The position numbers and the translations under genes are program-made. From Lachnoclostridium sp. UBA7215 (GTDB lineage Bacteria; Bacillota; Clostridia; Lachnospirales; Lachnospiraceae), in assembly GCA_002490465.1 (NCBI GenBank), contig DKUB01000061.1, positions 15,602 through 79,601 on the forward strand: a stretch of DNA of 64,000 bases. The letters are read 5' to 3'. Below, in pieces: positions 13,127 to 16,395 of the stretch; within the stretch, counting starts at the first letter, position 1; the number at the start of each line of letters is the position of its first letter. The notes under the pieces are model-generated. The model had not been told where the DNA came from and did not search any database. It saw nothing but the letters and a program-made list of their open reading frames with translations.

Positions 13127-14431
13127 TCAGCTGTTATTGCATTTTACCTTTGTATTCAGCGCTCCTCCGTATTTCTTTATCCATCTTGTGTATTGTTTTA
13201 TAGTTCCATCCGGCACATATATAGTGCAAAACATTGGGATGACGCTATTATGACTGGAAACATTTGTGATTTTTGGGGGAGTTGTCCCTCTGAACTCGTA
13301 TTCTTTTGTCTCATATTCCAACGGCCGCTGAAAACAGTCCAGCCAACAGCCAGCAAGCTCTTTTACATTTTTTCCGATTATGACTCGTTTTACCTTTTTA
13401 TTTACGCCTACAGACATGGCATTTTCACCAATTTTGAGTACTTTTGGTGAAACCTCTAACTGTCCATCGACATATTCTACCGCAATCAATTCCTTATCTT
13501 TTTTTCCGTATAAACAATGCCCATCTTTTGCAAAAGCTGGATTATTTTCGTTTACATCTATGTTTTCAACACCTGGCGCGGATAGTGCTTCCCTTTCTAT
13601 GCGGGTTACCGAGGCTGGAAGATGTATTGTCCTTGCTTTGCTATATTTCATGGCTTCTTTGCCTAACGCCTTAACATCATCCGGAATGTCCATCTTTTCT
13701 TTGTCAGATATGGCATAAATCAACTTACTGTCAGCTTTTGTAATAACAAAGCCGTCCTTATCATAAAGATTTGAATTGTTCTCTGAGACCTGGATATCCA
13801 ACAATTTATCACATTCCTCAAATGCATCAGGAGGAAATGCCGCCAATTTTTCAGGAATGATAACCCTCTCCAGATTTTTACAACCATAAAATGCCAATGA
13901 CCCCATAGAGGACAGGTTATCAGGAAGTTTTATCTCTTTTAGATTGGTCAAACCGCTAAAAGCACAATTCTCAATTGTTTCGATGCCGTCTGGCAAAGAA
14001 ATTTTAGTTATCTTTTTTGTAAGTTCATTTTCTCCTGATATGCCTTGAGGAGCTTCCACCGTTACACCGAACATAGAATCTTTAAATTCCTGTGATTCGT
14101 CCTTATCTTTAGGTCGCTGGCCAACACTGGACACTTTTAAACCATCAAATTTGTATGGAATGGTAAGGGATAGTTCTGTACTATCTATATTTCCGGCATA
14201 TTCAATATTGCGGATTCTAACTGAATTTTTATCGTTATTTTTTTCAAGAGAATATTTCCAGTTGTCTATTGTCACTGTTGCCGTTGCCGTATTTACATCC
14301 CAGTCAATTTTGGGCTGTTCTTCTTGTGTGTTTCCCGATGTACGATTTTCCGTTTTTAGCTTATCGCTTTGACAACTAACTATGGCTATTGAAAAAAAAG
14401 AACACAATAAAAATATAAATACCTTCTTCAT
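13127..14431 (-). CDS. BspA/TpLRR-type leucine-rich-repeat lipoprotein
   Basis: Lipobox IVSC; repeats such as ISLPDGIETIENCAFSGLTNLKEIKLPDNLSSMGSLAFYGCKNLERVIIPE. Confidence 0.88.
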   Translation of the reverse strand: MKKVFIFLLCSFFSIAIVSCQSDKLKTENRTSGNTQEEQPKIDWDVNTATATVTIDNWKYSLEKNNDKNSVRIRNIEYAGNIDSTELSLTIPYKFDGLKVSSVGQRPKDKDESQEFKDSMFGVTVEAPQGISGENELTKKITKISLPDGIETIENCAFSGLTNLKEIKLPDNLSSMGSLAFYGCKNLERVIIPEKLAAFPPDAFEECDKLLDIQVSENNSNLYDKDGFVITKADSKLIYAISDKEKMDIPDDVKALGKEAMKYSKARTIHLPASVTRIEREALSAPGVENIDVNENNPAFAKDGHCLYGKKDKELIAVEYVDGQLEVSPKVLKIGENAMSVGVNKKVKRVIIGKNVKELAGCWLDCFQRPLEYETKEYEFRGTTPPKITNVSSHNSVIPMFCTIYVPDGTIKQYTRWIKKYGGALNTKVKCNNS

Positions 14432-14436
14432 AATTA

Positions 14437-16395
14437 TCATCCTTTCCAATCAAATATAAGTAAAGCGTGTTCTGATATATCATAGTCTGTATAGGGTGAG
14501 TTTATAGTATCATTTGTTGTTCCCTTGATATAGTTAATTAATTTATATAAACGATAATCTTTTTTACTTCCGTCCATACCACTGAATTGTTTATAAGAGC
14601 CTTTCCCATTACCAGCATCATATAAAGATATTATTTTTTTTACAACATTCTGAGCAGCCTGTATACGACCTTTATATTTTTCGGATTCATCCGCATAGTT
14701 GTTTTCTCCGTTATTTCCATGTGCGAGATGCGCCCACTTTCCCTGTTTTTTTAAATAAACAAATGCACTATGTGCAAATACATCTGATGCTGTATGAGTT
14801 GCCATGCCCCAGACAAATGCTCTTTTCTTCCCATCTGTTGTCATTCCAAGAGAACTCCATTTTGAGTTAAGGCTTTGGACATCAGAAAGCATATTGTTTT
14901 TTGTTGTAGAATCCAGTCCGGATGGTACAGACGCTTTATCAGCTGTTTTCCCATTACCCAGAGCCTCTGCCAAACTTGTTACATATATATATGATGCGAT
15001 ATAATTTGTATGATAACTACCATGCCAACCCGGATTATCTGTTATACCTTTAAATCCTGACCCCTCTTTATCTGGATACCTGGCGCCTTGTTTTACATTG
15101 GCATGACCACTGCCTATTAATTCTTCGTGTGTATTTCTTGTCCAACTCCCCTTAACACACCCTGTTTTTTCTATAATATTAACCGTATTTGAATTATCTT
15201 TTATCGCACTTCCTTCTGTTTTAGTCATTTTTTTCTTTTCTATTATGTTGAATATTTTGTCAGAAAAAATTTCATCCGCAAGCCCATATCCTTCTTTTGT
15301 ATTATAGTTAGCACCTTCCAATAATACTTCTTTAATTAACTCAGCATTGGCTGATGGGTGATTTTGCCATATATTTGACGCAATGGCTGCAATTTGCGGT
15401 GATGCTAAGCTTGTTCCTGATTCAATTAAAATATCGCCAAATTCTCCAGTTGTACACACTAGTTCTCCTGGTGCAACAAGGTCAACTTTATTTCCTTTTG
15501 CACTACTATCTGCTAACTCGCCATTGGAGTCTATAGAGCCTACCGATAGAACATTATCATATGCTGCGGGATATTCAACATTAGCACCAGTATTCCCTGC
15601 GGCCGCAATTACTAATATTCCTGCATCTGTTGCGTCATCAACAGCTTTTTTGAGGGCTTTAGAATACTGTTCCATCCCAAAACTCATATTGATTATATTT
15701 ACTTTTTTAGAGATGGCATAATATATTCCCTGAATTACCCTGCTTTCCGGAGAAGTATTATCATCATCAAGAACTCTTATTGAGTATATACTTGCGTCCG
15801 GATTAATTCCTGTGATACCCTCATTATTGCCTTGTGCAGCAATTAAACCAGCTACACTATTTCCATGCCCACTGCCATCCATAAATAAAGGACTCATGTT
15901 TTCCTCTCCTGGAACAAATGATATGGATTCCTCTAAATAAATATCGTTTCCCCAATCAATTCCAGAATCAATAATAGCAATTTTTATTTTCTTTTTTTGG
16001 TCTTCCGTCGATTTATTATAAAGATTTAACATTTTTTTGTTCCAGTCAAGGTCAACACTTTTCAAAATTTTATTTCGATTTGTTGAAGAAGCTCGCATAA
16101 TTTTGTCTTTTTCTATAATGATATCATTATTTTTTTCTCTAATTTCACTAGCCTCTTTTTTGGTTAATTCCGCTGTAGCAAGAATTTCACCAGCTTCCTG
16201 ATATTTAATGTCAGCTTCGCGTTTGCCTAGAGAAGATTCAAGATTATCTTCTCCTTTTACCATGAGCAAATAATCATTTGTAACTTCCTTTGCATATGTA
16301 GTTACTGGATTAGACATATTCATATGTGTGCTACCTGTAACCAAATAACATAATAGTACAAATGTTGTAATTGTTTTTTTGATATTTTTTCCCAT
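14437..16395 (-). CDS. Secreted S8 subtilase fused to a C-terminal Zn-dependent phospholipase C/S1-P1 nuclease-like domain
   Basis: AAGGAG RBS before MGKNIKK; signal peptide; triad IAIIDSG, GHGNSVAG, SGTSLASP; oxyanion AAAGN; C-terminal WxxxxH, YPD, WH, HxxxDxxxH motifs. Confidence 0.88.
   Translation of the reverse strand: MGKNIKKTITTFVLLCYLVTGSTHMNMSNPVTTYAKEVTNDYLLMVKGEDNLESSLGKREADIKYQEAGEILATAELTKKEASEIREKNNDIIIEKDKIMRASSTNRNKILKSVDLDWNKKMLNLYNKSTEDQKKKIKIAIIDSGIDWGNDIYLEESISFVPGEENMSPLFMDGSGHGNSVAGLIAAQGNNEGITGINPDASIYSIRVLDDDNTSPESRVIQGIYYAISKKVNIINMSFGMEQYSKALKKAVDDATDAGILVIAAAGNTGANVEYPAAYDNVLSVGSIDSNGELADSSAKGNKVDLVAPGELVCTTGEFGDILIESGTSLASPQIAAIASNIWQNHPSANAELIKEVLLEGANYNTKEGYGLADEIFSDKIFNIIEKKKMTKTEGSAIKDNSNTVNIIEKTGCVKGSWTRNTHEELIGSGHANVKQGARYPDKEGSGFKGITDNPGWHGSYHTNYIASYIYVTSLAEALGNGKTADKASVPSGLDSTTKNNMLSDVQSLNSKWSSLGMTTDGKKRAFVWGMATHTASDVFAHSAFVYLKKQGKWAHLAHGNNGENNYADESEKYKGRIQAAQNVVKKIISLYDAGNGKGSYKQFSGMDGSKKDYRLYKLINYIKGTTNDTINSPYTDYDISEHALLIFDWKG

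Follow-up and report, generated by a model that had tools for sequence, protein, structure and literature searches.

The subtilase fusion and its downstream gene

The window considered here is a 64,000-nucleotide (nt) stretch of Lachnoclostridium sp. UBA7215, a gut bacterium of the Lachnospiraceae (contig DKUB01000061.1 of assembly GCA_002490465.1, positions 15,602 to 79,601 of the forward strand). On its reverse strand lie two closely spaced genes. One encodes a subtilase, or S8 protease, predicted to be secreted and joined to a C-terminal domain with the candidate metal ligands of the zinc phospholipase C (PLC), S1/P1 nuclease and Het-C superfamily; the other encodes a leucine-rich repeat (LRR) lipoprotein. 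A reading of the bare sequence, hereafter the original prediction, had taken the pair for a self-activating secreted toxin with a surface immunity protein or receptor. The features of the two genes, in window positions, are as follows.

16401 to 16407, reverse strand: ribosome-binding site AAGGAGA of the fusion gene, 5 nt ahead of its ATG
16395 to 14440, reverse strand: fusion gene as read from the open reading frame, 652 amino acids (aa), ATG at 16395, last coding codon ending at 14440, stop codon TGA at 14439-14437
16294 to 16395, reverse strand: signal peptide region, about residues 1-34, from the translation, with a basic n-region and the hydrophobic run TFVLLCYLVTG
16087 to 16290, reverse strand: subtilase prodomain, residues 36-103, from the secondary structure of the full-length model
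15223 to 16086, reverse strand: S8 catalytic domain, residues 104-391, from the PF00082 match
15145 to 15222, reverse strand: linker, residues 392-417 (26 aa), ending T-G-C-V-K-G-S
14440 to 15144, reverse strand: C-terminal domain of the PLC/S1-P1/Het-C type, residues 418-652 (235 aa), from fold model and conservation
14440 to 14447, reverse strand: ribosome-binding site GGAAAGGA of the LRR gene, within the last codons of the fusion gene
13127 to 14431, reverse strand: LRR_5 lipoprotein gene, 434 aa, from the PF13306 match and a lipobox

The stop codon of the fusion gene is followed by TAATT and then by the ATG of the LRR gene at 14431. The fusion frame can also be opened at 16476, giving 679 aa; that start is unsupported, and in 16 homologues the N-terminus coincides with the Met at 16395. 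The original prediction had described a signal peptide, a prodomain, an S8 domain with an intact Asp/His/Ser triad, a linker and a 235-aa domain, and the open reading frame, its translation and the PF00082 match agree with it throughout. The translation also confirms Trp418 at codon 15144-15142, behind a linker reading ...IIEKTGCVKGS|W, and the sequence confirms that the LRR gene starts 5 nt after the stop with its ribosome-binding site inside the upstream gene. In the one source annotation found, the fusion product is named only 'S8 family peptidase'.

Peptidase_S8 (PF00082) matches residues 135-367 with 168.2 bits against a cut-off of 21.8 (E 3e-49, Pfam), and the catalytic residues are D143 (IDSG), H177 (GHGN) and S329 (GTSLASP), with N268 at the oxyanion position. 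The triad shows no substitution in 193 fusion sequences, and N268 is replaced by D or E in six of them. The N-termini of 17 homologues align over the signal peptide region. A full-length AlphaFold2 (AF2) model made from 17 sequences, with a mean predicted local distance difference test (pLDDT) of 75.7 and a predicted template modelling score (pTM) of 0.57, places a helix at residues 2-22, a low-confidence stretch at 22-35 and a predicted beta-alpha-beta-beta-alpha-beta unit, the putative prodomain, at 40-101. The fusion protein gives no match to the Pfam I9 inhibitor/prodomain family. The prodomain ends in ...EKDKIMRAS, a predicted autocleavage junction with Met at P4, Ala at P2 and Ser at P1, and the family pattern at positions 100-103 is V/L/I, x, A/G, S, six residues after a conserved E-x-D. 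The junction is placed here by analogy with subtilisin BPN', since subtilisins cut off their own propeptide at this point.

The C-terminal domain

To collect relatives of residues 410-652, 1.84 billion cluster representatives (50% identity) were searched exhaustively with HMMER, and at least 213 sequences were found. Conservation of the candidate metal ligands was computed over 167 of these, and the denominators below are the sequences aligned at each column. Numbering runs from the Trp that opens the domain, with precursor numbering in brackets.

W1 (W418): conserved in 140 of 140
H6 (H423): conserved in 138 of 141
D25 (D442): conserved in 151 of 151
H41 (H458): conserved in 151 of 154
H117 (H534): conserved in 157 of 158
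D121 (D538): conserved in 158 of 158
H125 (H542): conserved in 158 of 158
H142 (H559): conserved in 144 of 157
D152 (D569): conserved in 145 of 152

These candidates make up the nine-ligand tri-metal set (Trp1 N and O, five His, two Asp and one Asp/Glu) in canonical order, and on the sequences compared their conservation is far above chance. Every ligand residue listed in the original prediction is present. In the two places where it had named a pair of possible residues, H142 and D152 are the conserved members, whereas H139 (H556) is kept only in part (56 His, 48 Arg) and E147 (E564) is not conserved. The spacing from W1 to H6, which we take to be that of P1 nuclease, is a lead only.

The fold prediction is consistent with the ligand set. 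An AF2 model of the domain from a 114-row alignment reaches a pLDDT of 97 and a pTM of 0.94, and was aligned with VIA-align to each of 48,161 representative PDB chains. The four highest scores belong to Bacillus cereus PC-PLC (1ah7, Z 7.5), clostridial alpha-toxin (1olp, Z 7.3), Listeria PlcB (8cqm, Z 6.6) and the nuclease SmNuc1 (8qjl, Z 5.2), over 128-130 residues at root-mean-square deviations (rmsd) of 3.0-3.9; unrelated chains reach Z 4.3 at most. In all four alignments, residue 1 of the model pairs with the first residue of the mature enzyme. Family profiles give a similar picture: PF00882 (Zn_dep_PLPC) matches 86 of the 114 relatives in the model alignment at E 0.01 or lower (best E 6.5e-10), 19 match DUF6765 and one matches PF25107, while PF02265 (S1/P1 nuclease) gives no match. 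Compared with Atlas models, the domain reaches template modelling (TM) scores of 0.47-0.50 against VWA7_N (animal Het-C) clusters and 0.44 against the PF00882 cluster. About 55 residues at its C-terminal end form an additional subdomain, and the domain is basic (pI about 9; median pI 8.8 across relatives).

Several observations pull away from this assignment. Foldseek finds no meaningful match for the model in the PDB, the best hits being sigma factors at E 0.07, and a profile of the 114 domains matches no PDB sequence even at E 10. For a helical protein, structural Z-scores of this size are moderate. The window domain itself scores 24.5-24.7 bits against PF00882, below the curated cut-off of 26.8. 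Within the ligand set, a variable loop separates H142 from D152, where PLC and P1 have H-x3-E/D, and the H-x3-D-x3-H spacing fits Het-C rather than PLC or P1. Since its own score is sub-threshold while most of its relatives match, the domain can be placed in the superfamily but not in PF00882 proper. That it represents a distinct family within the PLC/S1-P1/Het-C zinc superfamily is well supported, as judged from sequence and model, and in naming this fold class the original prediction was right.

A tryptophan that should be free

A few members of the family are complete without a protease. In four of them (P0081, P0104, P0144 and P0153) the signal peptide ends in AYA|W, AFA|W, TFA|W and TFA|W, so that the conserved Trp stands directly after an A/T-x-A signal-peptidase site. 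Signal peptidase would leave this Trp as residue 1, as it stands in alpha-toxin and P1 nuclease. Because of this placement the Trp should be a free N-terminus in the active enzyme, which the original prediction had proposed from B. cereus PLC and P1 nuclease. The other short relatives are mostly gene fragments that still start with a ...DTGCVEGS|W linker.

The same requirement is described for Listeria PlcB, in which main-chain atoms of W1 bind metal, the protease Mpl cleaves off a propeptide of 26 residues, and activity is lost if a single extra residue precedes W1 (PMC10576769). Since the third metal site needs the free alpha-amino group of Trp1, the uncut fusion would be a zymogen, and by sequence and analogy there is a high probability that it needs a cut exactly before Trp418.

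The region around that bond is strongly conserved. Trp occupies P1' in 189 of 189 fusions, Val occupies P4 in 168, and P2 is Gly in 172 or Ala in 17. The motif mirrors the predicted prodomain junction, with V/L/I at P4, A/G at P2 and S at P1, and in the window protein the two junctions read M-R-A-S (prodomain) and V-K-G-S (linker). Residues 409-418 have pLDDT below 50 in the full-length model, and a linker modelled as disordered should be accessible. Nearly all full-length members of the family are S8 fusions. Even six divergent relatives from Oscillospiraceae and Acutalibacteraceae, missed by the hidden Markov model of the C-terminal domain, keep G-x-W-x4-H 20-30 residues after the S8 fold, with H-x3-D-x3-H a further 145-185 residues on; the original prediction had named an invariant G-x-W-x4-H as a point to test, and the motif is kept in these most divergent full-length forms. 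On these sequence patterns, self-activation, in which the fused S8 domain would itself cut before Trp418, is the most likely mechanism, and the odds are somewhat in its favor.

The LRR partner

The downstream gene encodes a BspA-type protein in which PF13306 (LRR_5) scores 95.4 bits against a cut-off of 27.7. Its N-terminus, MKKVFIFLLCSFFSIAIVSC, contains the lipobox IVSC, with Cys20 as the predicted lipidation site, and the product is thus a predicted lipoprotein. The original prediction expected this gene to be co-conserved with the enzyme, and it is. Of 56 full-length relatives taken from species-representative genomes, 53 have a same-strand gene directly downstream, the median gap being 17 nt; in the present genome, each of the five enzyme paralogs is directly followed by an LRR_5 gene. 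A hydrophobic N-terminus is present in 52 of the 53 partners and a lipobox-like motif in 25, and 30 are LRR_5-like by phmmer. Among ten further partners sampled, five match LRR_4, two of them together with Big_6; of the five Pfam-negative partners, one is similar to LRR_4 clusters of the Atlas, a lead only. Tandem LRR genes follow many of the enzymes.

Similarity between partners tracks similarity between enzymes, but falls off faster. The paralog on contig C85, for instance, is 49% identical in the enzyme, whereas the partners share only repeat-level similarity (50 bits). No LRR neighbor accompanies the standalone enzymes at three independent loci. Because of these standalone enzymes, and because some fusions carry CBM_2, Big_2 or prealbumin-like modules of their own, a role for the LRR protein in tethering or targeting is ranked as the most likely, above immunity.

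Distribution and architecture of the family

The family of the C-terminal domain comprises at least 213 clusters at 50% identity. A scan with a 17-row full-length alignment as query, run against genomes standing for 185,579 species, found 350 places that encode a relative. The 78 loci that were kept come mostly from Lachnospiraceae, Eubacterium-like bacteria, Roseburia, Robinsoniella and Oscillospiraceae, and most of the 350 places lie in bacteria of such groups living in the gut of mice, rabbits, ruminants or humans. Several copies per genome are common. Among 200 sampled genera of Lachnospiraceae, 14 carry the family, and some copies are broken by stops. In the present genome, two of the five paralogs are disrupted inside the S8 part, that on C36 (L094) by one in-frame stop and that on C23 (L095) by a frameshift; both keep their downstream LRR_5 genes, and both could be pseudogenes or errors in the assembly of this metagenome-derived genome.

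The architecture is uniform where the two domains meet. The same C-terminal domain follows S8 in all 78 two-domain genes at the examined loci, in the six further divergent full-length relatives, and in nearly all of 150 cluster representatives among the matches listed, where most of the short exceptions look like gene fragments. The original prediction had envisaged a conserved S8 domain with a variable C-terminus, in the manner of a polymorphic toxin. This did not hold: the same G-x-W-x4-H ... H-x3-D-x3-H domain is present throughout the S8 clade, and because it is never exchanged, the protein falls outside the definition of a polymorphic toxin.

Variation is found at the outer edges of the protein. 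One sub-clade has CBM_2/CBM49 cellulose-binding modules ahead of S8, with two N-terminal CBM_2 modules in P0113, P0138 and the Eubacterium xylanophilum ATCC 35991 gene at L086 4585-8151, which still has an LRR gene 309 nt downstream. P0055 carries prealbumin-like domains after the zinc domain, and P0170 a C-terminal Big_2. In one locus (L100 5001-6965 / L109 3990-5954), two standalone secreted members of 285 and 317 aa stand in tandem, each with Trp at the signal-peptidase site, and neither an S8 nor an LRR gene was found near the pair. This genome also encodes, on contig C87 (L096 1459-2298), a 279-aa PF00882 protein that scores above the curated cut-off. Because it has neither a signal peptide nor an N-terminal Trp, it apparently belongs to a separate, cytoplasmic branch of PF00882, and this form was unsuitable as a reference for W1.

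The family is common, yet unrecognized in the available annotation and searched literature, in which no description of an S8-PLC or S8-P1 fusion was found.

Proposed mechanism and its rivals

We favor, with a probability of about 0.6, the interpretation that the pair is a conserved module whose product is a zinc phosphodiesterase, exported and gated by a protease. The 652-aa precursor would leave the cell via Sec, as its sequence suggests. The prodomain would fold the S8 domain and then, as in the subtilisins, be cut off after [V/M]-x-[A/G]-S. A further cut, within one chain or between molecules, would fall at V414-K-G-S417|W418; the requirement for it is well supported, and the S8 domain is its putative agent. 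Only then could the freed alpha-amino group of Trp1, together with the carbonyl, fill the third metal site in the way known from B. cereus PLC, clostridial alpha-toxin, Listeria PlcB and P1 nuclease. Once released, the basic domain of 235 aa would hydrolyze an extracellular phosphodiester, whether in nucleic acid, in the head groups of phospholipids or in some other anionic polymer. The LRR lipoprotein, made from the same mRNA and held on the outer face of the producer membrane, would bind either the enzyme or the target of the enzyme. Its most likely role would be that of a tether or targeting subunit, with inhibition or immunity less likely.

The identity of the cutting enzyme is the point at which this interpretation is most exposed. 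The P1 residue of the linker varies among the 189 fusions (S 84, R 44, C 15, with M, N and Q also occurring), which is odd for one specificity pocket. P1 agrees between the prodomain and linker junctions in 52 of 139 sequences against 39.5 +/- 3.4 in shuffles, an excess that is modest and confounded by relatedness. The full-length AF2 model does not dock the linker in the S8 cleft, although it is uninformative on whether the linker sits there. All three count against self-cleavage. It is conceivable that another protease, either a secreted bacterial enzyme or one of the gut host, cuts before Trp418, and that the fused S8 domain is independent or acts on the LRR partner or other substrates. The variable P1 and the undocked linker speak for this; the Arg found in 44 of 189 suits trypsin-like enzymes, and Listeria PlcB is indeed activated in trans by a separate protease (PMC10576769). 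We nevertheless think it improbable, since the fusion is almost obligatory, the sole alternative being a signal peptidase site at the same Trp, and since the S8 triad is never lost in 193 fusions and P4 Val and P2 Gly/Ala are kept at both junctions. Far less credible still is the notion that the fusion is never cut, so that the C-terminal domain either functions with its Trp inside the chain or serves the protease only by binding metal or substrate. Some PF00882 members do lack an N-terminal Trp, the cytoplasmic protein on contig C87 among them. Against this stand the Trp itself, present in 189 of 189 fusions behind a conserved upstream motif, its position at the mature N-terminus of the standalone forms, the conservation of all catalytic-type ligands, and structural alignments that begin at W1.

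What the released enzyme is for is a separate matter. It may be a nutrient-harvesting hydrolase, a protease and a phosphodiesterase (nuclease or phospholipase) held by the LRR lipoprotein on the producer surface or on substrate, with built-in CBM_2 or Ig-like modules perhaps sharing the holding role in some relatives. This digestive account is a serious candidate, if at rather less than even odds. The enzyme has no anchor of its own and its partner is a lipoprotein; the CBM_2 pairs at the N-terminus of some relatives, and the Big_2 or prealbumin-like modules at the C-terminus of others, are in keeping with it; the LRR partner accompanies the large fused form and not the small standalone enzymes; and a basic domain suits anionic polymers. 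A housekeeping digestive role fits poorly, however, with five or more diverging paralogs per genome, each with a fast-evolving partner, and the LRR gene still found downstream of the CBM-bearing L086 protein also counts against it.

The opposing account, in which the released domain attacks membranes or nucleic acid of competitors or host cells while the LRR lipoprotein is the cognate inhibitor that shields the producer, is the one given in the original prediction. An exported or lipid-anchored partner has the right topology, is tightly coupled to the enzyme, co-diverges with it and evolves faster; tandem LRR genes follow many of the enzymes, and LRR immunity proteins are among those listed for polymorphic toxin systems (PMC3482391). 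The family is also accessory, patchy (14 of 200 genera), multi-copy and marked by broken copies, and the cassette has a lower GC content than its flanks. Set against these are the secreted standalone enzymes at three independent loci with no LRR neighbor, a partner whose LRR type shifts between clades (LRR_5, or LRR_4 with Big_6) while the enzyme domain stays constant, and a C-terminal domain that is never exchanged. The CBM_2 pairs, Big_2 or prealbumin-like modules of some relatives suggest attachment to a substrate or surface, and among the neighboring window genes no delivery system or other toxin hallmark was found near the cassette. A toxin with LRR immunity is unsupported and doubtful, and a tethered or targeted extracellular hydrolase fits at least as well. 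A more elaborate form of the same idea would make the S8-phosphodiesterase and LRR lipoprotein a new Sec-dependent effector-inhibitor system of gut Clostridia, in which the LRR horseshoe would sit as a cap over the zymogen, or over the enzyme once released, at the producer surface; we regard this as unlikely. Its details, taken jointly, are similarly speculative: capping would resemble that of RNase by ribonuclease inhibitor, the protease would arm the effector only after it has left the surface, and the paralog pairs would be an arsenal with matched, fast-evolving immunity.

Comparison with known systems

The closest precedent for the protease-gated module is the Mpl/PlcB system of Listeria, which works in trans. 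There too, a precursor with the zinc PLC fold is inactive while residues precede W1, and a dedicated protease is co-encoded (PMC10576769). PlcB (8cqm) aligns with the C-terminal domain from residue 1, with Z 6.6 and rmsd 3.2 over 128 residues. Mpl, however, is a separate M4 metalloprotease that removes the 26-residue propeptide of PlcB in trans, whereas here an S8 serine protease lies upstream in the same chain. The C-terminal domain is also too divergent for a sequence match in the PDB, and has the additional subdomain and the LRR partner gene.

The best structural matches are B. cereus PC-PLC and the N-terminal domain of clostridial alpha-toxin (1ah7 and 1olp; about 130 residues, rmsd 3.0-3.1), in which the ligands follow the same order of Trp1, His, Asp, His, His-x3-Asp, His, His and an acidic residue. 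Identity is only 16-19%, and the third His stands three residues after the Asp in the C-terminal domain but five in the PLCs. The loop between the last His and the acidic residue is a further difference, and the substrate-binding residues are not comparable. The S1/P1 nucleases (SmNuc1 8qjl, S1 5fb9 and AtENDO2 3w52) share the superfamily fold, at Z 5.2-4.2; these scores are lower than those of the PLCs, and PF02265 does not match. With the Het-C or VWA7_N branch, which includes Tox-HET-C (Zhang et al. 2012, PMC3482391), the domain has the H-x3-D-x3-H motif in common. The VWA7_N clusters of the Atlas are slightly nearer to it than the PF00882 cluster; yet it matches no Het-C family of Pfam, and Het-C toxins have been described in Photorhabdus virulence cassette (PVC), type VI secretion system or metallopeptidase contexts rather than as S8 fusions.

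For the protease, there is a parallel within the Clostridia themselves. The clostridial Csp subtilases activate pro-SleC, an S8 protease thereby switching on another hydrolase by a single cut. That system serves spore germination, its substrate is a separate peptidoglycan hydrolase, and it involves neither a zinc phosphodiesterase nor an LRR partner.

Genomic context

The cassette of enzyme, LRR and small-protein genes (window 12500-17000) has a GC content of 0.33-0.39, against 0.43-0.48 on both flanks, and because of this difference it may be a horizontally acquired island.

The genes around the pair were each considered as a part of the module and rejected. Upstream on the same strand (window 17187-18498, reverse strand) lie genes for an extracytoplasmic function (ECF)-type sigma factor of 206 aa and a DUF4367 putative anti-sigma factor of 233 aa; related sigma genes are near only three of about 80 other loci (L003, L024 and L025). 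Between these and the fusion gene lies the gene of a 145-aa secreted protein with no Pfam family (window 16660-17097, reverse strand), with a terminator-like hairpin behind it at 16650-16667. In L003/L004 a weak homologue of this protein is encoded 2.4 kb upstream of the enzyme; the gene does not belong to the conserved neighborhood. Downstream of the cassette, a 76-aa lipoprotein with the lipobox LCSAC (window 12561-12791, reverse strand) is peculiar to the locus of this strain and has no homologue at the others. Genes for two MacB/FtsX-type permeases and an ATP-binding cassette (ABC) ATPase (window 9331-12411, reverse strand) are likewise confined to this strain's version of the locus.

Significance

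Enzymes of the zinc PLC type are among the classic virulence factors, and it is well documented that they depend on a free Trp at the N-terminus. In the one well-studied activation system, that of Mpl and PlcB in Listeria, the protease is a separate protein, whereas in the present fusion it appears to be part of the very chain that it activates. Gating of a zinc PLC zymogen by a protease was already known; what is new is a zinc PLC-type zymogen apparently gated in cis and paired with an LRR protein. If this is true, the fusion would be a clear-cut case, found in nature, of a two-enzyme zymogen gated in cis, and a large and unrecognized set of secreted phosphodiesterases would join the exoproteome of gut commensals. 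It would also pose a defined question, namely why an LRR surface protein is co-encoded with the enzyme.

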